The position numbers and the translations under genes are program-made. 64,000 nucleotides of DNA from Mizuhopecten yessoensis. Lineage: Eukaryota. The stretch is from positions 718,890 to 782,889 of the forward strand of contig NW_018408906.1 in assembly GCF_002113885.1 (NCBI RefSeq). Direction: 5' to 3'. Positions within the stretch are counted from its first letter, which is position 1. Every line of letters starts with the position of its first letter. Below the pieces are notes generated by a model. It made no database searches. It was not told the DNA's origin and saw nothing but the letters and a program-made list of their open reading frames with translations. Positions 9,201 through 51,395 of this stretch are shown here, piece by piece.

Positions 9201-9807
9201 TCCCTGTTTTAAAGTGAAAGTACTATAAATCATTGACAGGGCCAGGTCAGGTCTAGGAGGGGGTCCGGTCTATATCATTTAAATTCCTCCCAAACAGGGG
9301 AGGGGCGCTTATTACGACAAATACGGTATGTGTCTTATAACTTTAGAAAACTTGTACATGTATTATAAATAGTAGTTAGTTTGTGTATATAATTAATATT
9401 ATGATCTAAATTTGTGTATGTTACAAACCCATGTGTATTAAAATTGTAATTATCACAGAACCCTGTGTATTATTACAACATACATCTAAAGTTTTCCTGA
9501 ACTTGTATATATTTGTCTTTCAGAAGAGCCACTTCCTATTCTGTGTCACTATGACAAACACACATCCCTGGCTTACGGAGCGGATTGGTGCTACATGGAT
9601 CCCCCCTCTCCCTCCTCACATGCCCCTGGGGAGGGGGCAGACAAAAAGGACTTGCCCATCCCCTCGGGGAATACAGGCAGTGAACAAGGTCAAAGTGCAT
9701 CACAGGTTCCTGTTAACAATGACTTCCTAAAAACTATAGCGACTTGTTCATTTTATGATCATATTCTCAATTTGTGGCAAATCAATCTCAATTCATCATT
9801 AGGATAG
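3277..9807 (+). CDS. DPH7: Diphthine methyl ester hydrolase / WD40 protein DPH7 (WDR85), 7 coding exons, 408 aa
   Basis: join(3277..3420,4325..4653,5155..5312,5702..5774,6520..6585,7986..8158,9524..9807). All introns are GT-AG with matching phases; 1227 nt is open to TAG. The translation has DPH7-type motifs: TLDTEFSADSTEWCP, LLCGTYQL, GILDIKW, LSLDW, WKAHDFEAWITAFNYW, YTGGDD, HTMGVTSI, TGSYDE, GGGIWRIKW, HTSLAYGADW, ATCSFYDH. An acceptor at 3210-3211 implies an unlocated upstream UTR exon. Confidence 0.95.
3492..3577 (+). mobile_element. ~85-bp mini-MITE, piggyBac-like ends (copy 1 of 4)
   Basis: Same sequence recurs at ~6204-6287, ~9819-9901 (reverse) and 41922-42012. Consensus ends are TTAA-CCCTTTCACC...GGTGAAAGGG-TTAA. 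Confidence 0.7.
6204..6287 (+). mobile_element. ~85-bp mini-MITE, piggyBac-like ends (copy 2), inside a satellite-unit remnant
   Basis: ttaaccctttcatcactgtagaccataatggactcatccagatg...ctaggggttaa. Confidence 0.7.
7113..7670 (+). mobile_element. Non-autonomous Helentron-like element (HINE/pearl-type) in DPH7 intron 5
   Basis: T-rich start, subterminal IR (tatacgcctgtc...gacgggcgtata), (GTCC)n microsatellite 7162-7202, ~150-bp internal tandem units, 3' end ...ctcttgtt. Confidence 0.75.
8470..8612. repeat. Imperfect palindromic repeat core (non-autonomous DNA element) in DPH7 intron 6
   Basis: tttcatatgagatttatgaaatgagtc..gaatttttca / tgaaaaattt..gacgagtttcataaatttcatctgaaa, centred on gcgagcctctggcgagc. 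Confidence 0.55.
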
Positions 9808-9901: not shown

Positions 9902-10599
9902 GTGAAAATTCTCGTCAATAAAATATTATCAAAAAAAAACGTTTCTTCTCTTTTCTTTTGAAGCCTTTTTTTAGCATATCACAATCGGATGTGATTGGAT
10001 TGGTTATATAAGATGTGATTCTTTGTGGCAGAACTAGACCAAGACGTTCACTGTTGACTATAGATAGCTTAGTCATTGACATCTCATCAGACAAGTATGG
10101 GGTCCCAGATTTAGTTGGGTTTACAGGTAATAGACACAACATATCCTATGCCTATATTCTAATATGTAATTAGTAAAGGTAAATAGCGAAATGCTAAATC
10201 AAGTCCAAGAAAACGACGAAAAAAATAAAAATCGTGAGCCCGGCGGTCAAAACTGTGTTTAGATCTCCTCACAAATCCCCATTTTACCATTTAAAACAAT
10301 CCGTTTGAAAATTGATCGACTTACCTCCAAAATATGACATTTGAAAGTTGGAGAAATCGCCTATTCAGTTAGCGAAACATTTGGGACGTCCAGAACTTTT
10401 GTTGAAAAACGGCTATTTTTAACGGGATATCAACGATTTTCAGGGGTAACCATCCTTGACGTGTTTCCAAATTGATATTCCCATTATGGCACGTTAGAAA
10501 TTTAAAATAAAATCTGAAGAAGAAAAAAGAAAAAAAAAGATCAAATTGAGGTCTTGACCTTAGGTACCTGTGGCGACTTGGTTGCTTCCTCCATTTCAC

Positions 10600-10825
10600 T
10601 TACATTGTATGCAATGTGAATCGGGAAAGACTGGAGACACAATGCATAAACTTTATAAATAAATGTAGCTTATGATTTCAGGAGATATATGCATTGATAC
10701 TTCCAATGATTAAAAGGATTTGTCGTCCGCAAAGAATTTGGAAAGGCTTTTAGGATTATCAGATATAAAATGAACAGTAAAGGACTTAGTGCTGAGCCTT
10801 GGGGGACACCATGGCCAGCATTAAT
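10600..10825 (-). mobile_element. Decayed non-LTR (CR1/L2-like) reverse transcriptase fragment
   Basis: Minus strand reads GVPQGSALSPLLFILY followed, after a frameshift, by FFADD. Confidence 0.7.
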
Positions 10826-11002
10826 AGTTTAAACATAAAAGGAGGGGATGCCAATTTAGGCCTTATTGTGGCCATCACCGATACGTTTTAGTTTTATTCA
10901 TATACATAGATAAACAACCATTCCGATATATGAAGGGATTAAGTGGGGGACCAAAATCACAAACGGCCTCTTTTTGACAAAACCCTTCATACCCTTTTCA
11001 AC

Positions 11003-11383
11003 TGTAGCGGAAATGGACTGGGTCGTTTGCCGCCGACCATGTTGCTTAATTGGTACGTAGATCGAGCGTCCGTCTAGAGTTTGGAAAGTCCCGGGTTTAG
11101 AACCTCGGTTTGGCCGTGTATTTTCCCGCTCCTATTACATTTGGTGTCTGTGACCAACCCTTGTTTCAAGTACTGGGTGAATACTTGATGAGGGGATACA
11201 CGAACCTGGGTTGTACAGTATATGGTTGTGTCTTCGAGGGCAAAGACTTAGAAAAAGGAAGGAGGAATGTAGCGGAATGGGACTGGGTCGTTCACCGGCG
11301 ACAAGGTTTGTAGCTCAATTGGTAGAGTGCACTTCTAGATCGGAGGGTCCTGGGTTCAAACCCCGGTCCAGCCGTGCCATTTA
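11003..11383 (+). mobile_element. Miniature LTR element (TRIM) with tRNA-like LTRs, Helenus-type
   Basis: LTR1 11003-11139 (TGTAGCGGAA...CTATTACA), PBS-like TGGTGTCTGTGACC within 11140-11155, PPT AGAAAAAGGAAGGAGGAA 11250-11267. LTR2 starts TGTAGCGGAA at 11268, contains GTAGCTCAATTGGTAGAG and GGTTCAAACCC, and appears 3'-truncated. Confidence 0.85.
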
Positions 11384-11932
11384 TTCATAAATGCCATGTT
11401 TTTCACACAAAGGCCAAACAATAGCTGCTTTTTTTTTTGTTTGGAGATGCCTCTGACTTCAAGATAGATTAGTCCACAATAAAAAACAAATGTACATCTA
11501 AATACTTACGTTTTTGGAATACAGTGAGTGTGCTGTAGAAAATGAATTTCGTCTGTCAGTGATTTGATCAAATTCAGAATTATCTTCAGTGCAATGATTA
11601 AAATAAATGGATGCCCATTAAAGTATGATATTCTTTTCCAGTTTTGACTGATATTTTGGCTAACATAATGGGATGTTAACCACCCCTTGACCAGGGATGT
11701 GTGGTACACATCCCTGCCTTGACACACACCTAACATATTTTTATTTTGGGCTGAGGTCCATATTTCTGTGAGTTAAATGCATACATGTACGAGAGCCTGT
11801 TTCGTCCAAAATGATAAAGAGTATGTTATCTGGACTATAGCACATATTTTAACTTGATACCATCTCATAAATTATAAATCGTTGGATCCAAATATTGTAG
11901 CGTAAAATCTCAAGCTACTTTCGCACATAGAG

Positions 11933-14156
11933 GAAGGAAGTGGAGAAATAAAGCAATACACAGGAGCGCACTTCCCAAATACCGTTTCCTTCGCAGAACG
12001 CGCCCCATTGGAGAGCGCTCCCAAAATACCATTACACTGTTCTACTCATCAGCGCATCGCGCCCCGGCGCTCAAGGCCTTCTAAAAACCTGCTGTCACCC
12101 AGGCATATAAACACCTTGTTATACTGCCACCAGAGTCTAATAATAATTGCAAAATGGTTTGACGATATACAGAGGGAAATATATAAAGGAATCGTTTGAT
12201 ATATTTAGTTTTTTTTTGACAAACCCTGCTTTTCATATAGATAAATCCCACATGTCTGATGAGTTTTGTTTTATATAACAAACTATTTACGCAAAATTCG
12301 AAACAATCACATCATCTCAACCAACTCCGTCAAAGCACAAAAGATGATTCCGCACTTTCACGGAGTTGGCCGGAAAGTTACGACGGGATTATAAATGGGC
12401 AGGTAACTGCACGTCATTCTCTATACAGGGAGATAACTCTGCGCAACAATAGTATGACGTAACGTCAATTGTTCAATATCCCCTTCACAACAAGCGGCTA
12501 GCTAAAACAACGACACGTATTTTCTCAGGATAAAACCATAGACGAGTATTTAAAGCACCATGAACAACAACAATAACAACCAGGTAAGGTACATTTTGAG
12601 CATAAAAAAAATATTGTTTTACATAATTATAATGTGATGAAATTGACAGATTATTTTAAGTTGAATAGAAATTAGATACTTTAATTTAAATGACATAATT
12701 TCCCTGATTTTGTGGTGAAATTGCTTTGTTATTTTTATGAATCAAGCATAATTATGATGTCATAATTCATCAATTTTATTTTTATAGCACTTGATCAAAT
12801 TATTTCTAAATGAATTGATCTTCTGCATGGTAAAATGTTTACCTAGCCGAGTTATCTGTTAATACCAGTCGTTTTGCATTTTATATCAGATTCTTGACGT
12901 ATTGGAAGGATGGCCAAGTGATGTGTACGGCTTTTTGAGGGGGACACGGCCAAACGGATTGAACTTGTGGGTTACTTTCATGTCGGAGGACAAGGTAAGC
13001 TTTAAAGTACACAACATGTCAATCCTAGCATCTAGAAATCCTTAAAATCAATCCGCTAACAGGGAAATGAAAATTATATATTTATCTCGACACCATTAAC
13101 TTATTTTTGTCTTTTTTAAAGTCCGCTCTAAACAATTATTAACTATTTAGTAACGTATTTTTTCCTTTATATAAGGTCGGACTGAACGATACAAACGACG
13201 AGAAACAATGCAGATTGCCTGACATCTGGGAGGAGGAACGGAATAAGACGGATGAGGAGCAAAAATGGGTTAATGAGGAGGAGGAAGGGATGAATGAGGA
13301 AGAGGAACATTACAACCCTTACATTCGGTTGTATGCCGACTGTGAAGATTGGGGGTATGGCGACGGGATGCCTGCGGCCTGGCGACAATAAATCGAGGTA
13401 CAGCCATTTCACAAACTATGAGCTGATGTCAGTTCTAATTTTCGTTTGTTCTCAGAAGATTTACTTAAAAAATATAACTGTGTAATTGTCTTTCTACATG
13501 TAAATATACACTTCTGAAATAATGCATATAGATGTGTAACACAAATGTTTTTATCTTTTTTTTCCATTTTTCATTTCAGTTCACAAAAACCTTATGAGAA
13601 GTCAATCGCGCTAGCGACAAATGAGATGCAGCATGTTGAATGCGGGGGCTGTCGGACCCGGAACCGCACCAGAATGAAAACACCGAACTGATGATTTCAC
13701 AAAGTAAAAAAAAAAGCCGTATAATTTTATCATAAGTCTGTAGTTCTTTCAAAGTTTGACAATGCCCATTGACTTAATATTATTAAACGAAGTATCATAC
13801 AGGCCCATATTCGTACATTCTGTGCTTGGCTTTGAAGGTTAGTTGGATCCAAGCGGAAGTGAACATTTAATAGAAACATATTTGTTTGTACAAAATCTGT
13901 TCATTCTGAGTGATAGTATTAAATTCAAATTTAATTGTATCAACAAAATTTGATATATCTATTTTGATTTTTGGTATATACATTTTTCATTTCAATTAGG
14001 TTCTTTGTCAAAACAATTCTTGTGACGTAGTGATGACAATTACTGCTTACTATTTATAAGCTATGTTGTACACATAATCTGATGTTTTTGTCAATAAAAT
14101 ATATCTAACATTTGTATGTGTTTGTTCTATCGCAACATATCGGCAAACTCCGTTAA
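11933..14156 (+). mobile_element. 2.2-kb transposase-less element carrying a spliced gene (left copy; inverted relative to 25766-28173)
   Basis: Colinear reverse-complement similarity to 25766-28173, from GAAGGAAG(T/G)...GAGAAATAAAGC through ...TATCG(C/T)AACATATC; ends at TTAA 14153-14156. Confidence 0.75.
12560..13391 (+). CDS. Small acidic protein of unknown function, 114 aa, 3 coding exons (left copy)
   Basis: join(12560..12583,12890..12994,13176..13391), phase-0 GT-AG introns: MNNNNNNQ-ILDVLEGWPSDVYGFLRGTRPNGLNLWVTFMSEDK-VGLNDTNDEKQCRLPDIWEEERNKTDEEQKWVNEEEEGMNEEEEHYNPYIRLYADCEDWGYGDGMPAAWRQ*. Splice sites and frame are shared with the second copy. Probable 3'UTR intron 13398-13579; AATAAA at 14093. 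Confidence 0.7.
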
Positions 14157-14215
14157 AGGACAGTCTCTGCTTTCTGTTTTCTATATCAGTTTCATTGACA
14201 TATAGACTGTAACCA

Positions 14216-15075
14216 TTTTAGCCCACCAGATCCCACTTGAACTAATTAAACTTATGAATGCAATTCTGAATATTGGGACGCGGCTTCACGGCTACGTTAG
14301 GCAGACGCCTGGCAAAATCCTTTAAAACATATGTTTGCAATCGGATCATTTCGCCCGTTTACGTCGCATGCTCACGGAAATGGCCGAGTGTGGTCCAACG
14401 GAATGTGAGTGCCGGAGAGATGCTTTTTTTCTCACCAGAACCTGCCTGCACGAAACATCTTAACTAAATTCTCAATGTGAATGTCAATGTGAATTTGTGC
14501 CGTGATGTGGCATTCGTCATCATTATTCGTATACCGAACGACCAAGAGACAGAGGGGGGTGATATTTGGCTACGCTGGGATGAAATTTGTTTAAACGAAT
14601 GACCTGGAGCTGCATTCAAAGTCACAGGGGTCAAAGTTGTTGTAACTTTCAAAGGACTTTTATTGACTAACCACGAGGCCAAGGTTGATGTTTCTAGGCT
14701 ATTCGTAAGCTGTCAAGTGCCAATGACTTCCTGTACATATCTAAGATACCTGATGTCCTGATGTGATGCTATATTTGACTATAAGTATACTGGAATGAAG
14801 GGTTACCAATTTGTTCAAATGAATGACCTTGACCTACTTTCAAGGTTTTCCGAATAACTAAGAGGCAAGTTCTTGATATTCATTATTTAGCATGAAATGG
14901 TGGAAAGCGATACGAAACGAGGGATATCATTTGAAAATCAGATTAAGAAAAATAAGATGAAATCTTTCAATGAAGATTCATTAGGTGAAATTATGATATT
15001 CAGCCTTTTTAAACATAACAACGTAGCCATCTCTGAAGGTTACAGCTGTTAAATCAATGACAGGTGAGCAAGACA
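14216..15075 (+). mobile_element. Degenerate Helentron-like (HINE-type) element with satellite units
   Basis: Starts ttttagcccacca, contains gaccttgacctactttcaagg / tcaaagtcacaggggtcaaa units, ends near caggtgagc. Confidence 0.5.
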
Positions 15076-15334
15076 ACAACAATTCCGATATTTTGTGGCC
15101 GACTTTCAGACAGGTATAAAACGGTATATATTTTTGTTGAAATACCGCATGGCACACTTTAACTTAAGGGGCTGCGTAATTAAGGCGTCTGACCATCTAG
15201 TAGCATTAGCCCGCCACAATAGAAACAAACGATTCTATATATTGTCCCATTTTCCTTCAGAATGACCTACCAAACCTAATTCAATATTAATATTTCAAAA
15301 ATATACCATTATACAAAAAATTGTCCTCTGACCA

Positions 15335-16125
15335 CCAGGTCTCAAGCCTATACTGGTGGAGGAAGTCCCCGCCAAGCACATAAGGGGTCATAATCTCTTT
15401 ATTTCTCATTATATCTTATGATATTTACCATTTTTCTTCAGAATAACATAATAAAAGATATAAAACATAAATATTTCACACACACACACCATAATAGCAA
15501 AAATGTATATCTTGCCACAATAGCAACTCCTAACACCAAGAGTTGTCCGCCTTTCCCGATAACTTATAGGCAGTCTTCAAGGAATCACCAGACAAAAACT
15601 GTCATAATTTTTTTATTTCTCATGATGTCTTGTTGATATTTGCCAGTTTTCTTCATTATAACATACTCAAAAAAATACTATATTAATATTTCATATATAT
15701 ATCATTATAAAAAAAAAAACAGTTCGCTGACCACCATGACAACTTACTGTATGTCTCAAGCCTTTACTGGTGGGGAAGTCCCCTCCAAGTAAATATTGGG
15801 GCATACTTTCTTCATTTCTCATGATATCTTGATGATATTTTCCAGTTATCTTCAGAATAACATAATAAAGGATATAAAACATTAATATTTCACATATATA
15901 CCATTATAATCAAAAATTATATCCGATCACCATACCACATTATAACACTATAATACAATAGCAATACAATTTCATTTTCATATAGTGCATATTTCTTCAG
16001 AATTACATTTTAAAGGATATGAGATATCAACATTGCATAAATATATCATTCTATAAAATGTTCAATCTGCACACGATTCCTACCTATGGCTCAAGTCTAA
16101 CTCTGGCGGGGATTCACCCGCCAGG
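15335..16125. repeat. Degenerate tandem duplication (~400-bp period)
   Basis: tctcaagcc..tactggtgg(a)ggaagtcccc.ccaag...cttcagaataacataataaa.gatataaaacat occurs at ~15340 and ~15754, with a partial copy at ~16090. Confidence 0.6.
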
Positions 16126-16128
16126 TTA

Positions 16129-16755
16129 AGCCCCTGTCACACCTAGCCGCGTTGCCACTGCGATTGCACGGCGTTGTTAAAGTTCGCAGAGCGCCGTGAG
16201 ATCGCAGGAAAAATTGATATTTTTCATGAAGATGGCAATGTTACGGCGTTCTCACGGCGACCTTTACGTTTCAACGGAGCTCCATGGCGTTCTACCGCGT
16301 TCCTACGGAGATCTAGTTGGCAATTGTCTGCGCTCTCATGGCGCCCTCATGGCGCTTCCACTGCGTGCATCGAGTTTTCACGGCGCGTATAAGCGCGGTA
16401 GAGACACAGTGTCATCTCAAAGAACGCCGTGCAAGCGCCACCTTTAACCATTGCGTTCGCATTGCGACCTCTGTGCGCGCCCGCGGCGATCCTGTGGCGT
16501 TATAGGAGACCTAACTGCGCTGCTACGGCGACCTCACAGCGATCCCACTGCCCTCTTATCAGAACGCCGAGCGACGGCGTTTGTTTTCGGGATGCTCAAA
16601 GTGCGCGCCGTCGCTCGGCGTTCTATGCGATCCAACCGCGTTCACTGGCGATGCCACTGCGTTGCCGCGGCGATGCTTGCGATTCCACTGCGCGCAGATC
16701 GGCGTTCTGGATTTCTCTTGCACGCCGTGGGAACGCGGCCCTAGTGTGGGAGTGA
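16129..16755. mobile_element. GC-rich MITE, PIF/Harbinger-like termini
   Basis: Sharp GC-rich island; AGCCCCTGTCACACCTAGCCGCGTTGCCAC at the left end pairs with GTGGGAACGCGGCCCTAGTGTG(GG)AG at the right end; left flank TTA. Confidence 0.7.
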
Positions 16756-17586
16756 TGACCAGATATTGAAAAAAAATCAAACTCAGAGTAAGTAAACCAA
16801 GTGTTAATATTTCGTTATATTTGCATAAGGAGAGTAGTTCCTGAAATTTCATGAAGATATCTCAACCAAAACAGATTTTATGAGGAAAAAGCTAAATAAA
16901 AGCACCCGTAATCTCCTGTGACCTATTTCTGAAGGTCCTAAGAAGGATTTTTTTTTATTATTTCTTAACTAATCTCAAATTTGAACTTATTCTTCTGAGC
17001 CAAGTTTTATCTCATTTGAGTGATAAATAAAAAAAATAGGCCGAATAAGATATGACATTTAGTAAATGTCCTTACAGTAATCTGGTGATCTCTATTTTAA
17101 AGTTTAAAGTGCTAATTAGAAATATCTAAAGAATGATGTGATCTCAACTTCACTTTGTCTGCTGACAATTATGTTCCAAAATGTATTAATCCAGAGTGTT
17201 ATGTATCTTTGGTAAGGTGGTATTCGAATTCGAAAATGAGTTCAAACTGAGTAGACAAGGTCTGTGTCCTGAATTTTATACCTTCAGTTATTATGAGAAC
17301 TAATCAAGAAAGTGTTCTGATGGTACCCTGAAGGGTTAACTTAAACACCTATTTCTAGTCTTACCTGTACTATAATTACCCATATCCTGCCAATTAGAGC
17401 GAATAGAATTTACCTGAGTTATTTCATCGAGTATATCACACCTTACCTGAACGATAATTACTCATATCCTGTCAAGAGCGACTACGGATTTTACCTGGAT
17501 TATATCACGGAAAATAACACACATAACCTGTACGATAATTACACATATTTAGTTTCTTTTTTCTCTCTCAAAAATTCAAACTCAGA

Positions 17587-18168
17587 TTTTCGACTTTGGT
17601 TGAATTATTTGTACAAAATAAAATAAAGTTTTACACCCTATGACGACATATAGCGGCACAGTATAAAAATTATGGAGGCCCGCTATGATATTTTAGGGAA
17701 AATACATCACACCTGACATAATAAATTGATGTTGTGGCTGTATTTATAATTCTATCTCTCTTTATTGATAGTAAATATGTTTGGGAATATATTAGCTATT
17801 ATATAAACCATAAAAAACATAATATGTACATTTTTGTAGTCAGAATGAGAAAAATATCAAGGCACGGTACGAGTATTTCTGAATTTGCCGATATGGTTAT
17901 ATATAATATTCGTTCATAACGATACATTTCGAAAATAAACTTCGTTATTACATCAATTTTCGACGTTGGTTGAATTATTTGTACAAAATAAACTAATGTT
18001 TAACACCCTAGGACGACATATAACGGCACAGTTTAAAAAACATACGGAGGCCCGCTATGATATTTTCGGGAAAATAGTCACACCTGACGTAATAAATTAA
18101 TGTTGTGGCTGTATTGGTAATTCTATCTCTCTTTATTGAAAGTAAATATGTTTGGGACAATATTAGAT
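17587..18168 (+). repeat. ~370-bp repeat array upstream of the env-like gene (about 1.6 units)
   Basis: Unit ttttcgac.ttggttgaattatttgtac...acacccta.gacgacatata.cggcacag...ggaggcccgctatgatattt...tcacacctgac starts at ~17587 and ~17956. Confidence 0.85.
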
Positions 18169-19764
18169 TATTTTCCTGTATTTACCTGTTCACCAATAGG
18201 AAATACTGTGTTAGTTATAGGAATATTTAACAAATATATTTCCTGATTTTTCGTAATATTTACTAGAATTATGAATCAATATATACAATATTCAAGTTAT
18301 TACTTAATAAAAACACATCAAAATACATTAACTGAAAATCTGCTTTTATTAATTTCATATAAAATCAATTTTATAAATTTTTATTATGCATTTACATGTA
18401 TGTTATATATAGATTTCATAAAATAGAACTAAATTTAGCTAGAAATGTATGACAAATAAAATCAGTAAAGACAGAGATCATGTATTATATTAATAAATAT
18501 GCAATAACAGATGCAAAGCTAGGAATGAAAATAAATAAAACGAATTAATTACATGTACACATGGAATACTCAGCGCTGGTTGATCAATTCAATCATATTC
18601 ATAAAATACACACATGCACAAAGATACATGATATAAAACTAATATAATAGCACTAACTTACTAAAGGTGAAATATTGGAAAGTCAATAAAAATCACAGAT
18701 AAGTCCATGATTTTAAGAAATCCTAGCAAAGCACCAAATAAAAATTCTATAACAAGCACATTTATCACAATGTCACTCTAAATGCAAAAGATTGGTTGTA
18801 TATATTTGTGGATTTCACGTTACTGTTTTGTATGATCTAGCTGATGAAAATGGTATATGATATGAAAAAAATGTCTAAAAATGATGAAAATAGACTATAT
18901 AAAAGCTACATGTATATGACAGGACTGTATATATGATAGAGATAATGTGGGAGAACACAGGTAAAAACCAGGTAAAATATATATGAAACAAACTATAACT
19001 GCTATCACAACATTACTGCCTCTATGTTTTTTTTAAAAAAAAGTGGGAGAAAGGAGAACACACCGATGACACCTTATCTCCTGTTCCATACGCCCGAGGG
19101 GTCTCTTTGAGTTTCTCTGAAGAAAGTTGTACTGTTTTAATCGCCTGAAGCGTGAAACTGTCGGAAACACCCGCCTTAAACCTGTGCTATTATCACAATT
19201 ATTTCACGTGACAGTTGACATGGGATTAACGCTTCTCAATAGAGGATTAACTCTATCATTACTATAAAATCCGGGGCAGAATCGTTTCAAATCAGTTCGT
19301 TCTTCGATTCGAAAGCGAATACAACTCTTTGTTGCATTGAATTTTCTTTGCGAGTTTTGCATACCTATTTGCGAATTTATCCATCTTCGTACATAAACAA
19401 AACTGTTCAAGGTAAGAAATATTTCAATAATATCTTATTAAGGTTGACAGACATGTAGTGGAAATATTTAAAGGAAGCTAGTTCAGAGTTCATGAACAGC
19501 AGACAATTCTTGCCTAGCAATTCAGCAACTGACTTCTAATGAGAAGCGTAAATTATTATGAAATTGTCCTGACAAAATAAGTTATTTAAATGTTTTGTGG
19601 ATTTCGTCATAGGGTATTAACATAGATTTTAATAGGTCATATAGTCTATTGATTCTTATAATGTATATAAGATACAAGTTAAAGGAACGGAAAACATCAT
19701 ATGAATGTTAAATTGATAATTTACCATGGCCACCATTAATCACATCAAACAATTCTATTTTCAG

Positions 19765-22176
19765 ATGATATCATACATCACAGTACTTTTCTTGATAGGA
19801 TTGGCAGCTGGCGATAGTGATCTTAAGCGGACAAACGCTGGCGTGATTTTTAAATCACGAGGAACAATTCAGAGTTCGTCCAGCGTTTGGTACCATACCT
19901 TCGCATTAGATCTGCCGACACTGCCAAACAAATGGCTGCATTACCAAATGGCGGATCCTGGTATGCCTCCAATGAAGTGTACAGGAAACCCGGGTGACAG
20001 TGAATGCAGCATGTCAGCAATGTCGATGTCAAATTTCATTATTTCATTGAATGCAGAGGTATGTATTTTTAGCAAATTATTTTGTAACTTGTGTTTTCGG
20101 TTTTTTTGGTAAAATAAAATAAAGTCAAACCTGTATTAAGAGGCCACCCAAGGGACCGGCAGAAATTGGCCGCTTAAGACAGGTGTCTGCTAAAACCAGG
20201 CTCACCCGAATATCACAACCAAGTTTTCATACATCCACGGGTTATAATGACATTTTCCCGGCAATATAGCCTGCTATGTTATTTTGATTTTTTCTCCCTT
20301 CATCAACAGGGGTACGATTTCATACTTGAATATAAATGTATAATCAATAAAATACAAAGGCGTTTTGGTGATTAATTTCCTAAAATGATAAATTTATTTT
20401 TGTTTGGCTACACAGGTGTTCCACATACGTTTTGCGCTAGCAGACAACACCAGTACTGAAATCTACATGTATTTATTAGCAAATTATTTTATAACTTATT
20501 GTTCCGTTTTTGGTAAAATAAAGTATTTTCTTACCTTAGTATTAAACAAACAATAATTTACTCGTTATTGACTTTTATAGGTTGTAAAGACGTTTGATCA
20601 TTTATTGGACCTGACCAGAACTCTCATCCCAAAACATGTATCACCAGATCAAAAGAGAAGAAAATGGTTTGCCCCACTCTCAATTATTGGTTCGAGTTCG
20701 AAAACAATATTTGGAACAGCAACCGTAGAAGATGTTGAGACGGTTTCTTCCAATATCAACGAATTGATCAGATGACAGAGACTTACTGCTAAGACCATGG
20801 TTGCCCACGAAAGGAATTTCCAGTCATTTGTTAAGTTGTCTAGTTCACCTTTTAATGGGTTAAAGAAGAAAGTTTCTGATAATCACGAGGCTCTTAAAAT
20901 GATAAAGAATCTTGAAATAAATAATACTGACACCATCAACCGGGGAATAGATTTACTTGAAATTGCAATGTTTCAGATGAATAGAACAAATTCCATCATT
21001 CACCACCTTCGCGATATTGGGCAAGCTATTGAACAACTGGTACAAGGTTATCTCTCACCTTTACTCGTTTCAGGGAAAGCCATCAGAAGTGTCGTCAAAG
21101 AGATCAACGACAAGATCATCGACATGACGAATACAAAAGATCACGGTGTACTTTCTGACTACGGTTTTGGTCATCATAACTCTTTTTTTTGTCAATTGCA
21201 AGGAAATACAATATTGATTACTCTTAAACTTCAGGTAGTACCATTGTTAGGAAAGACACATCTCTACCAGGTAATGGTGTATCCAGTTCCAACAACCAAA
21301 CAAAGTAGACATGCAACAAAGATAGCAGGTCTTCCAGAGTATGTTATAATTTCTGACGATTACGGAGGTAGGAGGTATTCACCAATTACACCTGTTCAAT
21401 TGTCTAACTGCAGAGGGATTCATCATGTGGTATGTCCATTTAATTTAGTTTACACAACAGTTTTAAAGGAAAACTGTCTTACATCCCTCATTAAAGATTC
21501 TTCAGATAAAATAGCAAAGTTTTGTGATTTTAGGTACTTCCGTGACCATCTGGAGCCGTCCATAGAGCCGATATCGGACAACAGCTTTTCGGTGTATGAT
21601 ATCCCCAGGCTCTCACTGAATATAAGAGGACATACCGAAGATGTCGAAGGCTGCCATCTTTGTATTATTACCATACCATGCCATGCCAGAATCGAGACTT
21701 ATGACATGACCAGTGACAGAGTGCTTTCCCAGAAATGCAATAGCGAGGAGACCGAAGTGACACGCGATCATCTTGTAAACTTGGCGATGGTAAAGGCATT
21801 CATTGCAGAAAACAATCAGCTTGGATTTACAGCATCATCTGTCTTCAGTAAAGCACAGGATGTTAAAGTACCCAAATTTGACTTTTTCGAACACCGCTAT
21901 CATGAATTCCTTACGACCGACCAGAAAACGAACCTTAAGCTGAACAAGATGGTAGAAGCATCAAAAAGACAGGAAAAAATATTTCAAAATATTGCAGAAC
22001 CCTTTATCAAAGCTAGTGAAGAAAACGCCACTTGGTTAACCTCGAGTCTTTCCGTTGGAGATATTGTGGTAATAATATGCCTTATTGTTGGGACAGTGGT
22101 TTTCATACGACTTATTTTTATTGTGAAGAGATTGGGAGCAATTATTGCTGTTAGTACAAAAGGCGAAGAAGCATAA
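19765..22176 (+). pseudogene. Intron-containing envelope/fusion glycoprotein gene (Gypsy/errantivirus Env, baculovirus F-like), ~629 codons, one in-frame TGA
   Basis: join(19765..20058,20581..22176), phase-0 GT-AG intron. Signal peptide MISYITVLFLIGLAAG; basic site KRRK(W) followed by fusion-peptide-like FAPLSIIGSSSKTIFGTATVEDV; heptad-rich region; Cys-rich ectodomain (GCHLCIITIPC); TM IVVIICLIVGTVVFIRLIFIV. TGA at 20773-20775. Probable 5'UTR intron 19412-19764. Confidence 0.8.
20123..20200 (+). mobile_element. Tc1/pogo-like MITE end inside the env intron
   Basis: agtcaaacctgtattaagaggccacc...ggccgcttaagacaggt lies between two copies of a ~60-bp duplicated intron segment (~20061 and ~20468). 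Confidence 0.5.
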
Positions 22177-22476
22177 TGAGAATCTACAAAATTAGACTCT
22201 ACCATTCATGGCATGATAAAGTCTGGAGAACAATATGAAAATCTAGAACAAAAGATCAAGACGATAACTAATATATGTACACATATTATACAGAAACTGA
22301 GGCATTCTAACCAAGGAACACTAATGAAGACTAGGAAAAGAGTAAGATTTTAGTTATTGAACCAGTTATAGGCTCTTTTGTTCAGAAATATAAACCTGAT
22401 TATACTATAAACAATAAAAAACAGATAGCTGACCAAATAAAAAGAATTTTATCTAAATATTAACCCACAAAGGATG

Positions 22477-23505
22477 AGTCACACCTGACGTAATTAATTA
22501 ATGTTGTGGCTGTATTTATAATTCTATTTTTCTTTACTGATAGTAGATATGTTCGGAAATATATGAGCTATTATATAAACAATATAAAATCATTATATGT
22601 GTATTTTTGTAGTCAGAATGAGAAAAAAGTCAAGTCACGGTACAAGTATTTCTGAATTTGCCGCTACATTTATATATAATATTCGTTGATAACGGTAGAT
22701 TATGAAAATAAACTTTATTATAACATTTTTCAACCTATGTTAAAGTTTTGTACAAAAAAAATAATGTTTAACACCCTAGGACGAAATATAGCAGCACAGT
22801 CATAAAAATAAGGAGGCCCGCTATGATATTTTCGGAAAAATACATCACACCTGACGTAATAAACTAATGTTGTGGCCGAATTGATAATTCTATCTCTCTT
22901 TATTGATAGTAAATATATTTGGGAATATATTAACTATTATATAAACAATACAAAAAACATTATGTGTGTATTTTTATAGTCAGAATGGTAGAGAAATAAA
23001 GGGACGGTACGATTGTATTTTAAATTTTCCGACATGTTTTTATATAGTATTGGTTTATAACAATTAATTATGGAATACAAGTTTAATATAATTTCACAAT
23101 ATGACCCTGATTCAAGTATTAACTTTAATAGTAATTATTAAGAAAACTATTGACCTTTACACTTCCACATCCCCGGGGGGTGTAACTATCAGAATGAGAG
23201 AAAAAAATCAAGGCACGGTACGAGTATTTCTGAATTTGCCGGTTATATGTAATATTCGTTCATAACGATAAATTATGAAATTAAACTCGTTATAATATCA
23301 TTTTTCGACTTTGGTTGAATTATTTGTACAACATAAACTAATGTTCAATACCCTAGGTCGTCATATAGCGGCACAGTTTAAAAACTACGGAGCCCCACTA
23401 TGATATTTTCGAAAAAATACATCACACCTGACGAAATTAATTAATGTTTTGGCTGTATTGGTAATTCTATCACTATTTATTGATAGTAAATATGTTTGGG
23501 AATAT
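22477..23505 (+). repeat. ~370-bp repeat array downstream of the env-like gene (about 2.5 units, same orientation as 17587-18168)
   Basis: tcacacctgacg.aa...gtggctgtatt...aattctat...gatagtaaatatgtttgggaatat units at ~22478, ~22845 and ~23422. Confidence 0.85.
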
Positions 23506-25765
23506 GTCATTTTTGAGTTGTAAGTGAACTTTGATAAATGAAAAAACAAATCAGGACCTGGAACTCACTTCAGCCACAGGTGTTGAGCAAATATTATATG
23601 ATATATATAATATACAATACTAATAATTGATATCTTATACATGTACTTATAGCATATAAAGGGTGTCATTCACCTTTTAATTCACTTAAAATTGAGAGAT
23701 ATTTGAAAAAGCCAAGCTTGAGATGTGTCCAGAAGCCATAACTCATAACAAAAGGAAAGTGTATAGTCAATATGCAATTTATGCAAGTCTACTTAAATGA
23801 GTGAAGTTGTAAATTTCAAGTCAAAATATTATTTAGAAAGGAAATTATTGAGGAAACAAATTACTTTTCAACTGAAAATGACCGAAAAGACCCCCCTGAC
23901 TTATTCCTTCGTTTTATATAAACAATCTTTAAGTGACGATTGAATTTCTGTCATTTTTCATTCTGTTACATATGCTTGTTTATTTATACATGTTTTCAAA
24001 AACAGAAATGGCATTATTTAGGTTTTTAAGCTCATTTTGAAAACAGCAAACTTTCGGTCATATTTGTTCATTTCATTTGAATAGACGTTATGAATCGTAA
24101 TATGGGCATAAGGTAAAGAAGTGGGACCTTGACTTTTATTTATGATACTAGACACTCAGTCTTGGTTAATTACAATAGCTCAATACAATGAAATAAACAT
24201 GAAATTTAATTAATTTCTGGTTCAAGTAAACATTAAATAATTTTTCTGATGATCATCAATTTTTAGATTTTTCGTCTTGAAATTTGGATCACACATTAGC
24301 GACTTGCGAAGTCGCTGATATGTGATCGATTTTTAGGGACTGAAATGTACATGTCTAAAATAGCATGTAAAATGCGGAATTATAACAGTTTCAACATAAC
24401 ATTACACACAACGTTTGTTTACATCAAGGACATCACAAACATACCAAAGGGAGACGTATACAACGTAAATTATTTTTTTTATCTTATTAAAGTTATTTTA
24501 GTCCTAAAATGTTGATCACATATAAGCGTCTTGTAATATGGGCATAAGGTAAAGAAGTGGGACCTTGACGTTACTTATTTATGATACTAAATACTCAGTC
24601 TTGGTTAATTATGCTCGTGCCCCACCCCACACATTATAATAAATATTTTCATATCCCTCTTTAAAGGTCGTTTTCGATTTCCTTCTTACCTGCCAACTGG
24701 TAAATTTGACTTTTTGATCATATATTTCTGTTTACTATATTAATGCACGGAAGTAATGTCGTTTCTCGACTGTTAGTGAGTGCAATTGGTTGTCTGAGAC
24801 CCGGGTCACATAACAAACAACGTATATATACCTCCCTTTTAGAACATAAACACTTGCAATAAGTACTCTTTTATAATAAAGAAAATTATTTGTATATATT
24901 CCTTTCTGGTAAAGAAGATAATACTGTAAAGGTTTTTCATAAATCATACATTATAAGCCTTCTTGGCCCCTTTTTATCGCCCTCCCACGACACATAAAAA
25001 CTAATGTGTGAAATCTATACGAAGTTACAGCGACTGGCGTAGATGGGCTTCTTCAACAACATCACCATCATCATCATCATCATCATCATCAATCATCATC
25101 ACTAGCGGTTCATTCTTTCTTAGTCGTTAGACGAGAAAAACTGTTGGTAAGTGTGTTAAGAAATTGTTTGCATTGAACTCATGTACGACGTAATAATAAT
25201 AATAATATACAACATTTATATAGCGCCCTGTATAATTTGTAAAATTACTCTAAAGCGCTTTACAACATATGGATAATAGTAATGGTTATAATTGTGAGGG
25301 CGGGGTAGGGGGGTCGCAGTTGAGCGGTACGGCTGAAATAGCGCTTTATTCTCAGCCATGTTCTCTATTACACGCGTCACGACTCGAATAGGAGTTACGT
25401 CCCTTTGTACACTCGGTAATGCTTGTATGCTAGTTATTACTCAGCTTGTTATTTTAAATGTGTATTTGAGTCAGACCATTCATTGTTACTCTGTTAATTA
25501 ACAGCTATTTGAGAGAGATTACTCATTGTAATAGACCATACTAGTTAGTAGCTAACTAACGCGATCATTATTACTTAATTGTCACATCTCCACGTAGATA
25601 ATTTAGAGCAAGGCAGTTCGGTCATATGCTATGTAGTTTTCTCTATGTAATGATCAATGTTCATCATGATAATAGTTCTAGATACTGTCATATCTCTATA
25701 TGTTTGTAGTTGGGAATTAGTTAAGATAACACTCACTGTGCACTCTGCCAAAAGTTCCGATTTTA

Positions 25766-28173
25766 TTAAGGAAGACATCTCCCGCCAGATATGTTACGAT
25801 AAACCAAAATAGGGAAGGTAGATCAAGAACAAACACATACAAATGTTATATATATTTTATTGACAAAAAAAATCAGATTATGTGAACAACATATAGCTTA
25901 TAAAAAGTAAGCAATAAGTGTCATCATTACGTCACGAGAACTGTTTTGACAAAGAACCTAATTGAAATGAAAAAAATATACCAAAAGTCAAAATAGATAT
26001 ATCAAATTATATATTTATACAACTAAATTTGAATTTAATACTATTTTGATGCATTTCAATCGCTCAAAAAGAACAGATTTTGTACAAACAAACAGATATT
26101 TTTCTATAAAATGTTCACTTCCGCATGCATCCAACTTAACCTTCAAAGCCAAGGATAGAATGTACGAATAGTGTCCCTTTTGATACTTCGTTTAATAATA
26201 TCAAAGTCAATAGTGCAATGTCAAACTTTGAAAGAACTACAGACTTATGTTCAAATTATACGTCTTTTTTTTTACTTTGTGAAAACATCAGTTCGGCGAT
26301 TTTCATTCTGGGGCGGTTCCGGGTCCGACAGCCCCCGCATTCAACATGTTGCATCTCATTTGTCGCTAGCGAGATCGACTTCTCATAAGGTTTTTGTGAA
26401 CTGAAATGAAAAAGGAAAAGAAAAATACCAGATTAAATCCATGCGTTACACATCTATTACATGTAGAAATAATACGCTGTAATATTTTAAAAGTAAATCT
26501 TCGGAGAACAAACGAAAATTTGAGAAGAATTGAAATCAGCTCATAATAACTACTAAACGCTTTCATGTATCTTGAATTCATGTATGTGAAATTACCTAAT
26601 TTAAGTTTACCTCGATTTATTGCCTCCATGTCTCTGGCATACCGTCACCATATCCCCAATCTTCACAGTCGGCATACAACCGGAGGTACGGGTTGTAATG
26701 TTCCTCCTCCTCATTCACACACTTCTGCTCCTCATCTGTCTCATTCTGTTCCTCCTCCTCATTCACCCACTTCTGCTTCTCATCTGTCTCATTCTGCTCC
26801 TCCTCATTCACCCATTTCTGCTCCTCATCTATTTCATTCTGTTCCCTCTCCCAGATGTCAGGCAATCTGCTTTGTTTCTCGTCGTTTGTATCGTTCAGTC
26901 CGACCTTAAATGAAAGAAAAAAAATACGTTACTAAATAGCAGATTTAACTTTTAGTGCGGACATAAGAAAAAGACAATGATAAGTTTATTTTATCGGAAA
27001 AACAAAATATAGTATCGAGATAATTATGACATTTTTATTTCCGTGTTAGCGGATTGATTTAAAGGATTTCATTATGCTTATTAAGATTGACATTTTGTGT
27101 AGTATAAACATTACCCTGTCCTCCAACATGAAAGTGACCCACAAGTTCAATCCATTTGGCCGTGTCCCCCTCAAAAATCCGTACACATCACTTGGCCATC
27201 CTTCCAATACGTCAAGAATCTGATATAAAATACAAAGTAGCTATAATCAAACACTCAGTTAGGGGGACCTTTTCATCTTAACCACGCATCAGATAAATTC
27301 AATGTAGAAATAATTTGTGCATGTGTATTTGAAATAAAATTATAACTTTAAATTAAGACATCGTATGCCTGGTTCTTAAAATTAACAAGAGAAGTTCACC
27401 GCAAAATCAGGAAAATTATTTTACTAATTAATTTATCTCTATTCTATTCAAATTAAAATAGTCTTTCAAATTTCTCCACCATATAGAGAAGAAACATTCT
27501 AATTCCAAAAAAAATATCTTACCTGGTTGTTATTGTTGTTGTCCATGGTGCTTTAAATACTCGTCTATGGTTTTATCCTGAGAAAATACGTGTCGTTTTG
27601 TTTTAGCTAGCCGCTTGTTGTGAAGGGGATATTGAACAATTGACGTTACGTCATAATATTGCCACACAGAGTTATGTCCCTGTATAGAGTATGAGGTGCA
27701 GTTACCTGCCCATTTATAATCCCGTCGTAACTTTCCGGCCAACTCCATGAAAGTGCGGAATCATCTTTTGTGCTTTGACGGACTTGGTTGAGATGATGTG
27801 ATTGTTTCGAATTCTGCGTAAATAGTTTGTTATATAAAACAAAACTCATCAGACATGTGGGATTTATCTATATGAAAAACAGGATTTGTCAAAAAACCTA
27901 AATATATCAAACGATTCCTTTATATATTTCCCTCTGTATATCGTCAAACCATTTTGCAATTATTATTAGACTCTGGTGGCAGCATAACAAGGTGTTTATA
28001 TGCCTGGGCGAAATCAGCTTTTTAGAAGGCTTTGAGCGCCGGGGCGCGACGCGCTAATGAGTAGTACAGTGTAATGGTATTTTGGGAGCGCTCTCCAATG
28101 GGGCGCGTTCTGCGAAGGAAATGGTATTTGGGAAGTGCGCTCCTGTGTATCGCTTTATTTCTCAACTTCCTTC
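25766..28173 (-). mobile_element. 2.4-kb transposase-less element carrying a spliced gene (right copy)
   Basis: Reverse complement of 11933-14156. Its own ends on the + strand are TTAA-GGAAG (25766-25774) and CTTCC-TTCA (28166-28174), i.e. a 5-bp mini-TIR in a TTAA-like context. Confidence 0.75.
26617..27546 (-). CDS. Small acidic protein of unknown function, 138 aa, 3 coding exons (right copy)
   Basis: complement(join(26617..26904,27115..27219,27523..27546)): MDNNNNNQ-ILDVLEGWPSDVYGFLRGTRPNGLNLWVTFMLEDR-VGLNDTNDEKQSRLPDIWERE(QNExDExQKxVNEEE[E])x3-HYNPYLRLYADCEDWGYGDGMPETWRQ*. Confidence 0.7.
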
Positions 28174-28720
28174 AAGGTGTTTACAGGTGTCTCCGTGTCC
28201 GAGTCATCTGAATCTTCATCTTTAGCACAATGTACACGAAGACGGAGTCGCCTATAAAATCTCTCCATATCCTGAATTAATACCGCATTGTTGGGATTTC
28301 TGGGGGTAGGACAGAAATTGAGACCTTTAGAGAGGAGCGAGTTCTCTTGTTCTGAAAGGTTGTGGCCGGAAAGGTTTACTACTGTGTTGTTGACTGCTTT
28401 GTTAGTAGATTTATGTTTGGTGCGCCGTCTCCTCTTACGGGGTTTACGATTAGTGGGAGTCGCGTTGGAATTTCTTTGTTCGTTTCTCATGCAGAGAGGC
28501 ACGTCTTTTGTTCTCGAAGTGTTTTATCTTTTGTAGGAGTGTCGTTGTTTCATTTTCCGATGTTGTGGACTTTAAGTTATTAAGACCTGACGCCAGCTTC
28601 TTACGTGCAATACTGAGTTTCTTGTTACATACTCCCTGTAGCAGTGCAAAAATGATTCATCCGACAGACAGGCACTGTCTCCTCAAAGCGATTAGTGGCC
28701 GACTTTGACATAGAGCCAAT
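28174..28720 (-). mobile_element. Penelope-like retroelement, N-terminal fragment truncated at the right-copy element
   Basis: Basic KPRKRRRRTK then VVNLSGHNLSEQENSLLSKGLNFCPTP...DMERFYRRLRLR, the motif that precedes the RT in Penelope-like ORFs. Confidence 0.8.
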
Positions 28721-30419
28721 AGAGCCAATATAAGGCGAGCACTTAGATTTTAAGCCTTTGTGTACAATATCTGCCTGCAGTTACGAGCAATGATACTTTT
28801 AATATTTTAAATTACACCAGGTTGCTGTTCACCACTGGATGTCGGAATACTAAGGGGTCGGCATAGAAAGTTTTCATTTTATGCAATTAATTTAGTGTGT
28901 GTTGAATACCTCAGTGACATGTACAGTCCTCGACACGTGTCCATATCCAAAATTACTCCAACCAGTTTATCCTCCCATAATGCAGTAATGTAATGTACTC
29001 CCCTATATATTTTACCCCCAACAACACTTTACAATCCTTTTGCATCTCTTTCCCTTCTTCCTCCTCCATCCTCTTCTCTCCTATATACTTATATCTATAT
29101 GCAAAATATTCGTCAGTGCCGTCCAATCGCTGTTTTACAAAAAAGGAGACGGATTAACATAAGTACTTTGTACTTGTTTTCGAATCCTATATGTATATCA
29201 TGTTTGCATTACTGGAAATTTATATTGATAATAAAATAAAGTTTAAACTAATATTTCGTTTAGTATTTTACTACATGGCTGGTTCATTAAATTTGTTTCA
29301 AGACTAACTCAATTCATCACCCCATGAAATCGACCAAAGCAAGATTCAAGTATAATTTGAGCGCGCTTTCTCTCTCTCGGGCTTCAATCAAAACTCCCGG
29401 ATTATTTTGGTATATGCATGTAACTTTGCGGACTTAATCAATCTGTGCTTTATAACGAACATTTCATGGTTAAGATATCAAAAGTCATACTAATGCGACT
29501 ACAGTTATTTGATCACATGTTCTTTTACTTCTTAACCTTTACCTTCAAGTTCAACTCGGTCTTTGTCTAAATCGGCTGTACTTGTCATATTTAAATCGTG
29601 CGTCAAACCTGAAACGCAATGACGTCAAAGTTATGTTCCACTATTGTGACGTCAAAGTCATGTTCCACTATTGTGCGTCGATATATTTTACAACCAATTC
29701 GTTCAGTGTTGATGTAATTTTTTACATTTGTGCAATTATCAACCTTTTTGTATTTCTAATTTGATGTAATCGTTCCCGTAAATGTATATTTGTACAGTGT
29801 TGTTTGGCCCTATACGACTGGCATTGCCAATGGTCCGTGAAACAATACAAAAATCTAAAGACAAAATAAAAGCAAATCTGTTAATATTTTGTCGTTGTTG
29901 TCTACAAATAACTATGTATGTGCTATTGCTAGACATCCTTGAACTCCCACTAACAGTATTTTCCTCCGATTTATCTATTATTAAAATAATATGTTACTTG
30001 AATATAATTTGAATATGTAATTTGTATTTGGAATTACAGTAAGTGACGAAATATTTTATCACCGCTGTTTCTTTTTTTGTTTTGTACTTTTTTATATTTT
30101 TTTCCATAAAAATGCAAATATATCATGCATAAACATTATTCCTCTCACACATTACAATTCATTCATTAAATATTCATTTATAATAAACTGCATATTTCCA
30201 GGTATAATTAATTATGTTTATGCATAATTAAATTACAGCTAAATTATGTCTGTTATATAAAAGCATTGTTTAGAAGTGATAGAAAGGTCCTAGAGGTATA
30301 ATAGGGAATGTAAGACTAAGAGAGAGAAGAAAAAAATGAGGGGGNNNNNNNNNNNNNNNNNNNNNNNNNNNNNNNNNNTCGATAGTTATATGTTCATATT
30401 TTGGCAAAGACAGGGTTTA

Positions 30420-31455
30420 AACAATATTAATTAGACTTTTCCATTTTTTCCATTCATTATTGAATTTCAATAAAAAAATCATTCACTTTTATTAACAGCA
30501 ATATATCTCTGAGTAAAATATGTGTCCTTGATAAGGTTCTTAAGTGCAGCTACTGACAATGACATTTGTAAACATCTCGATTTATAAATATGTTGTTTTA
30601 TAAGTAAAATGATGGTATTATCTACCCTACTACTGATACTATTTTGATTAAATAAACCGAAAATGAAGGTTTCCTTGTTAAAACCAAATGGGATTAACAA
30701 TGCATCAAGAAGGAACTCAAAATTTTGTAAAAAATCTTGTACTTTCTCACATCCCCATAGTGTGTGAATTATTGTCTCTATTTCAGTCTTACATTGAAAA
30801 CAAAGAGCACTATCGGTAACAGCTGCTTTAACTAGATAAGAGTTTGTTGATTTATTCTGTATTGAAGCCATTGTAATTTTGAATTTCTAGTTACTGTAAA
30901 AGGAATCATATATATCAATTTCCATGCGTCATCATCGAATTCAAACAATTCATTCCTTTTGTTTTTCCCAGTGGATATGGTACTATTTTGGCACAACAAC
31001 TTATACAAATCTTGAGTTCCTTTTTTATGCCTCATAAATATTTCTAAATTTAAGGGTATGTATGGATAACTAATCAAAGTATTTAAAGTATCATCATTGG
31101 ACATGTAGGTTTTTTTTTATATAATATTAATAATACCTTAATATGTAAGAAAGTTAGTTTTTACATCAAATTTTTGTGAAAATTCTATAAAACTATAGAA
31201 AATACCAGAGTTATTATCAAGTTTATTATTATTAAGTCATTTATAATTATAACACCCTTTTCAAACCATTGCTTATAAAATAAACATTTGGCTCCTACTG
31301 TAAAATATTTGTTATACCAAATAGGCATTTTCAATCTACTTTTCATTTCTCTTATACAATCTTCTTTATCAGCTATTTTTCTCCATGATTGGAACACATC
31401 TTTCCATGGAGCTATTAATTTTCTCGTATGGAGAACTACACAAGTTGCTTTATCC
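30420..31455 (-). mobile_element. L1/Tx1-type LINE 3' fragment (C-terminal zinc-finger region), frameshifted
   Basis: MPIWYNKYF...LFYKQWFEKGVIIINDL; WKLIYMIPFTVTRNSKLQWLQYRI; CFQCKTEIETIIHTLWGCEKVQDF. Confidence 0.85.
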
Positions 31456-32369
31456 TTCGTTTCTTTTTTGTGAACTCTCTAGATCCTGTTTAGTCTGTAA
31501 GAGTTATATGTACATGTACAAAATAGAACAGATGGGAATAAAACAAGAAAATTAGAAAACAGTTTTCCAACGAATTCGGGAAGAACCGCACTTTTAAATA
31601 GAAGTGTTGCACTCGTCACCATTTCCTGACAGAATAACTTGATCAAGCTGTAGTCTTTGTGTGAAAAAGTCAGTTGTCCAAACAACAAAGTCACAATATT
31701 CTGCATTTGATAACAGAAGCTGACATTGCACTTGGTAAAAATACGCATGGTTACGCTTTTTAAAAAAACAAATAAAGGCAACTTTGTATTACTAACATGT
31801 ATACCAGAGTTATCGTTCCTGTTCCATTTCTTTGTGTTCGACACATAGAGTTATCTCCCCTTCCCACTGTTGGACGAAGTTAGCGACTGCACGAATCCGA
31901 AGTTTTCAAGACACTTTTTTTTATTTACTAAGCTGCAAAATCAAGGTAAACTATTGTTTGTCGACTGTTTTCAGCACGCATTATAAAGCGATCTTATTAG
32001 ACATAAGTTCACAATTCTTGCGTGACATGATCACGGATTTAGAAAGTATTCCGTGGCAGGATTTAAAATTACGGTCCCCTTCTACAGTACAGTAGCTATG
32101 CAGGCCTCCGACCACAATTGATTTTACTATATATATATATATATAACAGTTAACTACCAAAAGAAAAATGAAATTGAAACATTTAAAAATTTTCGCAGGG
32201 TCTGGTTCTTATTTCATATTGTAGGTCTATTCAAACTGAGCATCCATGCAGTGAGCTGGAAAGTATCGATACCTCATGACCGGCATTGACCGGCATTTAA
32301 CTTAAGAAATTACATTTTCGGGGCAATAGGGACTAACTTCGCTGTGAATTGAGTGTGTGACCCATCTGA

Positions 32370-50883: not shown

Positions 50884-51395
50884 AACACAAGCTGTTCACT
50901 ACCTAGACCTGCAGGTCTGTCCAACACACGCTGTTCACTACCTAGACCTGCAGGGCTGTCCAACACAAGCTGTTCACTACTTAGACCTACAGGTCTGTCC
51001 AACACAAGCTGTGCACTACCTAGACCTGCAGGTCTGTCCAACGCAAGCTGTTCACTACTTAGACCTACAGGTCTTTCCAACACAAGCTGTTCACTACCTA
51101 GCCCGGCAGGTCTGTCCAACACAAGCTGTTAACTACCAAGACCTGCAGGTCTGTCCAACACAAGATGTTCTCTACCTAGACCTGCAGGTCTGTACAACAA
51201 AAGCTGTTAACAACCTAGCCCTGCAGGTCTGTCAAACACAAGCTGTTCACTACCTAGACGGGCAGGTCTGTCCAACACAAGCTGTTTACTACCTAGACCT
51301 GCAGGTCTGTCCCACACAAGCTGTTCTCTACCTAGACCTGCAGGTCTGTCCAACACAAGCTGTTCACTACCTAGACCTGCAGGACTGTCCAATGC
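50884..51395. repeat. Minisatellite, 39-bp unit x ~13 with internal 14-bp palindrome; possibly an exon
   Basis: aacacaagctgttcactacctagacctgcaggtctgtcc; AGACCTGCAGGTCT is self-complementary; flanked by splice-like sites at 50868 and 51401. Confidence 0.9.

Follow-up and report, generated by a model that had tools for sequence, protein, structure and literature searches.

An F-type envelope gene between inverted copies of a spliced gene in the scallop Mizuhopecten yessoensis: a candidate co-opted fusogen within an old gene pair

How did an envelope gene of viral type come to lie midway between two inverted, gene-bearing arms in a scallop genome? The locus occupies positions 11933-28173 of a 64,000-bp stretch of Mizuhopecten yessoensis DNA from contig NW_018408906.1 (hereafter the window, to which all coordinates refer), and the envelope (env) gene near its centre is interrupted by an intron. 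An earlier note made from the letters of the window had offered two models: a non-autonomous derivative of a large DNA element or endogenous virus, with the arms as long gene-bearing terminal inverted repeats (TIRs), or a common small element that inserted twice independently and happens to bracket env. A third explanation, which that note had missed and which we rank first with moderate confidence, is an old inverted pair of host genes, with conversion between its arms, around a co-opted env.

Self-BLASTN of the window gave a single inverted match, between 11933-14128 and 28173-25826 (80.5% identity over 2394 columns), and the homology continues inward to a common TTAA (14153-14156 and 25766-25769). 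The left arm (11933-14156, + strand) comprises an outer non-coding block (11933-12559) with TATAAA at 12106, 12182 and 12390, three coding exons (12560-12583, 12890-12994 and 13176-13391) and a predicted 3' untranslated exon (13580-14128) with AATAAA at 14093. The right arm (25766-28173, - strand) also has three coding exons (27546-27523, 27219-27115 and 26904-26617), and the two genes converge. Their spliced products are, letter for letter, the NCBI M. yessoensis models P0011 (LOC110466992, 114 aa) and P0010 (138 aa), which bears out the earlier description of inverted arms with inward-pointing genes; the env models are likewise identical to NCBI models. The left side is not an assembly artefact, because contigs of other individuals, from two to three studies, span its junctions: the outer one in two of three DNA runs (X1 and X2, among the pieces listed) and the inner one in all three.

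The arms differ greatly in divergence from one part to another. Synonymous sites are 28% and introns 22% diverged (139/625; range 18-27%, as strong as the earlier note had claimed), with no difference between these two classes (0.28 versus 0.22, p 0.42), and non-synonymous sites are 4.6% diverged. The resulting dN/dS is 0.14 over 111 ungapped codons, excluding those of a repeat expansion in the right arm (Fisher p 9e-7). Thus, the arms are old duplicates, and their gene is under purifying selection. The 3' untranslated exon is 7.9% diverged, and the outer 627 bp show only 26 mismatches in 625 aligned bases (4.2%; 96% identity), which differs sharply from the introns (0.04 versus 0.22, p 2e-22). 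This outer non-coding block is far too similar for the age of the arms, and the mosaic of 4% against 22% fits either conversion or an unusually strong cis-constraint, each of which could suffice. Inverted hsp70 pairs are a case of converted gene-bearing inverted arms. Gene-bearing palindromes with arm-to-arm conversion (PMC6790999) have in common with the present locus inverted, gene-bearing arms around a spacer, and in both the members of a pair resemble each other more closely than they do those at other loci. However, the arms here are only 2.2-2.4 kb long and 80% alike, are a mosaic of 96% identical ends and 78% identical introns, and hold a fusogen in their spacer.

The arm gene is apparently confined to scallops. 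A HMMER search of 1.84 billion representatives with the arm protein gave three matches, including the Mizuhopecten cluster and a 48%-identical Pecten maximus protein, which is the one genuine outside relative found; the third match, a Chromobacterium repeat protein (E 9e-7), is spurious. The viral and metagenome contigs searched held no relatives, the arm exons had no real Pfam match, and all Atlas matches were 0.81 or lower. The protein is acidic and predicted to be unfolded (AlphaFold pLDDT 41, single sequence). In exon 3 of the right arm, an in-frame 45-48-bp repeat (26699-26845) adds 24 residues to the acidic middle of the protein; in a paralogue, P0132, the acidic expansion at this site is smaller.

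P0132 belongs to a second pair of arm genes, with P0012; the contigs of the two are equally long (201,805 bp), from which we infer a shared scaffold, and their accessions are two apart (OWF44501.1 and OWF44503.1). Thus, each of the four annotated copies found in M. yessoensis falls into one of two same-scaffold pairs, and the proteins share 88% and 95% identity inside a pair and 76-82% across pairs. The presence of a second neighbouring pair hints that the whole unit was copied as one piece. In three DNA runs the summed contig depth of the left arm was 16-68 (single contigs mostly 10-15), against 277-56,576 for the repeats of the spacer; summed contig depth is not copy number, and we use it for no more than a comparison of orders of magnitude. 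The arms are not a common dispersed element. Low depth, the second pair and purifying selection together make two insertions of a common element unlikely, and the second model of the earlier note is accordingly disfavoured.

In a specific version of that model, a small, non-autonomous, gene-carrying element of Kolobok type that targets TTAA inserted separately to form each arm, and env came to be bracketed by chance. Kolobok elements have RR..YY termini and target-site duplications (TSDs) of TTAA (PMC9587614), and the right arm has GG..CC termini and is flanked by TTAA and TTCA, while the inner ends of both arms meet TTAA. The right-arm mini-TIR reported earlier, GGAAG..CTTCC (25770 and 28170), is indeed present, but it is only 5 bp long, and its left-arm counterpart is the imperfect GGAAG..CTCC. 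Moreover, the flanking tetranucleotides differ on both arms, arm depth is low, all four annotated copies are paired, the gene is conserved to Pecten, and two arm-end motifs had no match in the KolobokP supplements available (PMC9587614), where line breaks may hide matches. The Kolobok-like signs are weak, and this origin is improbable. The composite KolobokP architecture is known in bivalves, including M. yessoensis, but there a DDE transposase lies between direct repeats of 450 or 660 bp (PMC9587614), whereas the repeats here are inverted, 2.3 kb long and gene-bearing, with no transposase and no TSD.

The gene at the centre is indeed an env of F type, as the earlier note had supposed of its intron-bearing F/Env-like fusogen. 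It has an Atlas feature match of 0.96 and a structural template-modelling (TM) score of 0.60 to the Baculo_F cluster. Coding exon 1 (19765-20058, + strand) encodes a signal peptide and the N-terminal part of F2. Coding exon 2 (20581-22176) encodes a furin-like RRKW site, a fusion peptide, a cysteine-rich region and one transmembrane segment, and its frame is interrupted by a stop codon at 20773-20775. When exon 2 was modelled in AlphaFold with this codon read as X (pLDDT 74), the model matched in Foldseek the F proteins of respiratory syncytial virus (E 6e-6) and human metapneumovirus (E 9e-4), with TM scores of 0.21-0.25, and also foamy virus Env (E <0.001); the TM scores of these matches are low. 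Pfam by itself gave no real match on this env; 17 of 48 members of the family alignment match Baculo_F, and the window env is not among them.

A profile of the gene found 155 relatives, of which those named are almost all molluscan and several are fused to a Retrotrans_gag domain; it found no loci among the viral and metagenome contigs searched. The window env is only 22-30% identical to each of the 120 relatives compared. In a quick tree of 53 rows, made up of every labelled row and one in three of 109 long matches, it stands on a branch of 2.7 substitutions per site, and the tree does not place it. The furin-like site and fusion peptide are retained, as are eight of the ten family cysteines; the two missing ones are lost together and probably form one disulfide. 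There is one transmembrane segment, where all six relatives scanned have two and a tail. Seven mollusc proteins of 1000-1160 aa (P0028, P0055, P0059, P0062, P0096, P0101 and P0105) consist of a retrotransposon gag domain fused to a full F-type env, and the clusters of P0096 and P0055 recur on several chromosomes, which suggests gag-env elements with an F-type env. An order of GAG-ENV-POL, by contrast, is given for gB-type elements in section 5 of PMC13524379.

These likenesses point to the ancient errantiviruses of molluscs, which are env-carrying Ty3/gypsy elements (PMC13524379) and share with the window env the F fold, the furin-like site with fusion peptide, and the cysteine scaffold. The window env differs from theirs in its 22-30% identity, its very long branch, its coding intron, its single transmembrane segment without the tail of about 200 aa, and its in-frame stop. 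Of the features of an errantivirus provirus (PMC13524379), the locus has an env that encodes a cleavage site, a fusion peptide and a transmembrane segment, but neither a gag nor a pol open reading frame (ORF); as to long terminal repeats (LTRs), the only candidate repeats at the locus are two direct arrays of about 370 bp. The window env derives from an errantivirus provirus but is not one, and it likely came from an LTR retrotransposon.

Could the env unit nevertheless be simply a decayed errantivirus provirus, transcribed as a pseudogene, never co-opted and unrelated to the arms, with the arrays as its LTRs? The direct arrays that the earlier note placed on both sides of env do lie there: the left one (17587-18171, + strand) has about 1.6 units and the right one (22477-23505, + strand) about 2.6, interrupted at 23091-23189. 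Their period is 366-371 bp, and both end in the same phase. That common phase, the in-frame stop, and the AG|ATG acceptor at the start of env together with a leader donor, which resemble spliced env expression, favour such a provirus; the env of gypsy is spliced (legend in the Iris paper, PMC1262188). However, the units are 84-91% alike all round, with no excess of left-right identity, and there is no 3' copy of the env promoter, so that the arrays are not established as LTRs. No TG..CA pair or primer site was seen by eye. The intron in the coding region and the paired loss of cysteines imply long residence as a coding gene, and a mere decayed provirus is an unlikely account of the locus.

The intron in question (20059-20580) is a 522-bp GT-AG intron, placed where the relatives run uninterrupted. 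Contig 15 of run X11, which is probably an RNA run, omits exactly these 522 bases. Env is thus host-transcribed, and its gained intron spliced, in this one probable RNA run. Depth in X11 is near zero over the arms, which we do not read as silence of the arm gene. Upstream of env, TATAAA (19263) and TCAGTT (19292) stand 29 bases apart and are presumably promoter motifs, TCAGTT being the initiator of the predicted promoter. They are followed by a leader exon to 19411 and a predicted leader intron (19412-19764), which contig 15 retains. Within the coding intron, a 79%-identical direct repeat (20061-20139 and 20467-20545) brackets a high-copy repeat, a hint that the intron grew by insertion. The DNA runs also contain env paralogues, as contigs about 87% identical and contigs of depth 44-68; contigs with differing letters cross the acceptor of this intron, which indicates that the env family spread together with it.

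Like the window env, Iris and Iris-B of Drosophila and the domesticated env of mosquitoes are stand-alone, host-transcribed F-type env genes (PMC1262188). Iris-B has gained an intron and was duplicated, and the furin-like site is kept in the window env as in the mosquito env, unlike in Iris (PMC1262188). The host here is a mollusc, and the intact ORF of these domesticated genes (PMC1262188) is lacking in the window copy. Given this failure of the reading frame, the window env is a candidate for, and not a member of, the Iris-like domesticated env genes.

We now turn to the first model of the earlier note, in its most developed form: a composite non-autonomous DNA element whose arms are long gene-bearing TIRs with cis-acting outer ends, which would depend on an enzyme acting in trans to be copied as DNA and would carry a spliced fusogen as cargo. 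Part of that model has gained substance, in that a second same-scaffold pair (OWF44501.1 and OWF44503.1) exists, pairs are more alike within than between, and env paralogues have evidently spread with their intron. The outer ends are sharp as well as 96% identical, and the right end adjoins a cut Penelope-like ORF. Env depth is about twice that of the arms, which fits a spreading unit, but armless copies of env may then exist.

Other parts of the model have fared worse. Neither the whole unit nor either arm has a TSD beyond chance 4-5-mers, and at the outer ends only a 4-mer matches, when the boundary is shifted into the arm; the absence of a TSD there had been observed before. Between the arms, the only ORFs of at least 100 aa in the ORF list are env and two frames at 16402-16861, over a repeat resembling a miniature inverted-repeat transposable element (MITE), and tblastn with gag-env proteins matched the env exons only. 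The ORF list and tblastn with the gag-env and Penelope proteins thus agree with the earlier finding of no gag, pol, integrase, polymerase or transposase gene in this interval. Arm introns are 22% diverged, the spacer is full of host repeats, the terminal hairpins of the arms are not above shuffled sequences (z -0.5 to -0.6), and there is no homology between the outer flanks or between the inner flanks. On balance, a composite element is possible but not probable. The fuller claim that the arm-env-arm unit is a previously undescribed scallop composite DNA element, with TIRs that carry a selected spliced gene and a fusogen cargo, and which spreads as DNA to at least two loci, is slightly less likely again. 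Polinton/Maverick elements carry a protein-primed polymerase and an integrase, and have near-identical TIRs with a TSD. We rejected this group, since the ORF list, the divergence of the arms and the TSD test reveal none of these features at the locus.

The Penelope-like ORF is an N-terminal fragment (28174-28523, - strand) directly adjoining the outer end of the right arm. Its relatives carry a reverse transcriptase (RT) and a GIY-YIG domain; the fragment has no real Pfam match. By tblastn, the remainder of the ORF, which would hold the RT and endonuclease part, lies beside neither arm. That the unit, or a single arm, inserted cleanly into a Penelope ORF is accordingly unsupported, and the lack of a continuation on the left also counts against the composite element. 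Alternatively, the arm gene, introns included, could have been copied in trans by a Penelope-like element, and the fragment in the same orientation fused to the right arm would then be accounted for. However, the likely TATA box is preceded in the arm by several hundred further bases, Rfam found no hammerhead or other RNA in 10500-30500 (only three sub-threshold chance matches), and such copying accounts neither for the second pair nor for introns of long-standing divergence next to 96% identical ends; we consider this copying very improbable. A separate, decayed C-terminal remnant of a Penelope-like ORF is present at 59229-60203 (+ strand; tblastn E 5e-4 to 3e-3). Intact eukaryote-type Penelope-like ORFs were found on two contigs (L001 and L002) of one bacterial metagenome-assembled genome, probably through host contamination, and P0013 is similar.

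We therefore return to an old, inward-facing host pair of what seems to be a scallop-only gene, its ends likely homogenised by conversion, around a likely co-opted F-type env, an explanation that has a fair prospect of being correct. An ancient inverted duplication would have created the pair; selection would then have held the exons while the introns drifted to about 22%, and conversion would recently have made the outer 627 bp alike again. The spacer may have received an errantivirus-like insertion that lost gag-pol and kept its promoter, leader and env. This env would have gained an intron, shed the tail and the second membrane segment, and then become host-transcribed. Paralogous pairs and env copies would have arisen by DNA-level (segmental) duplication, and the window copy of env would now have acquired its premature stop. 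The depth of the left spacer, which is like that of ordinary repeats, supports this explanation, as do the left junctions shared among individuals, the selection on the arm gene, the greater likeness within pairs, the Pecten relative, the long branch, paired cysteine loss and single transmembrane segment of env, and the absence of a TSD, of homology between flanks and of a 3' copy of the promoter.

Several observations weigh against it. The 96% identity reaches a sharp outer end, which a transposon terminus fits as well as a conversion tract does; the conserved outer block stops precisely at the donor site of exon 1, a limit not predicted by conversion at random; and both arms have their inner ends at TTAA. 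The env paralogues (about 87% identical in nucleotides) and the second arm pair (about 80% in amino acids) have diverged to a roughly comparable degree, which is what a unit moving as a whole should show, and the depth values, as stated, are a coarse guide. Three points weaken the case for co-option in particular: the in-frame stop, transcript evidence from a single run that is RNA by guess, and the lack of an env orthologue in another scallop among the database relatives found.

In the literature searched, whose coverage excluded subscription papers and most supplements, there was no description of this locus or of its architecture, and the main texts did not mention any of six gene and protein accessions. 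Co-opted F-type env genes described there come from flies and mosquitoes, with none from a scallop; a paper on Troyka (PMC12440569) proved, in the text available, not relevant to the locus. On the likelier explanation, a mollusc thus offers a candidate co-opted F-type env: a small paralogue family with its cleavage site kept and an intron gained, in which fusogen co-option by an invertebrate can be tested by comparative genomics. Should the composite element be real, it would be a eukaryotic one whose inverted arms carry genes and whose cargo is a fusogen; the same literature contained no paper on such an element.

The unit contains further repeats. The left spacer (14157-17120) contains high-copy host repeats, including the MITE-like element near 16130-16750. 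An 81-bp tandem repeat of 2.3 copies (17363-17548) precedes the left 370-bp array, and between that array and the env promoter lies a further high-copy repeat, at approximately 18200-19200 (depth 344-2111 in bins 18081-19520).

Outside the unit, the exons of a host gene with weak Pfam matches to the WD40 beta-propeller (4319-9730, + strand) finish just left of it. We take the last exon to resemble DPH7/WDR85, without a match in the PDB; the gene is a useful synteny anchor. To the right are decayed frames like those of non-LTR retroelements (30479-31850 and 32688-33260, - strand), the first with a zf-RVT match (E 0.0065), and a gap of Ns near 30345-30378. Tandem arrays with units of 74, 39 and 145 bp occupy 49542-50265, 50884-51392 and 53556-54663, respectively, and the 145-bp unit is related to a repeat dispersed across the window.

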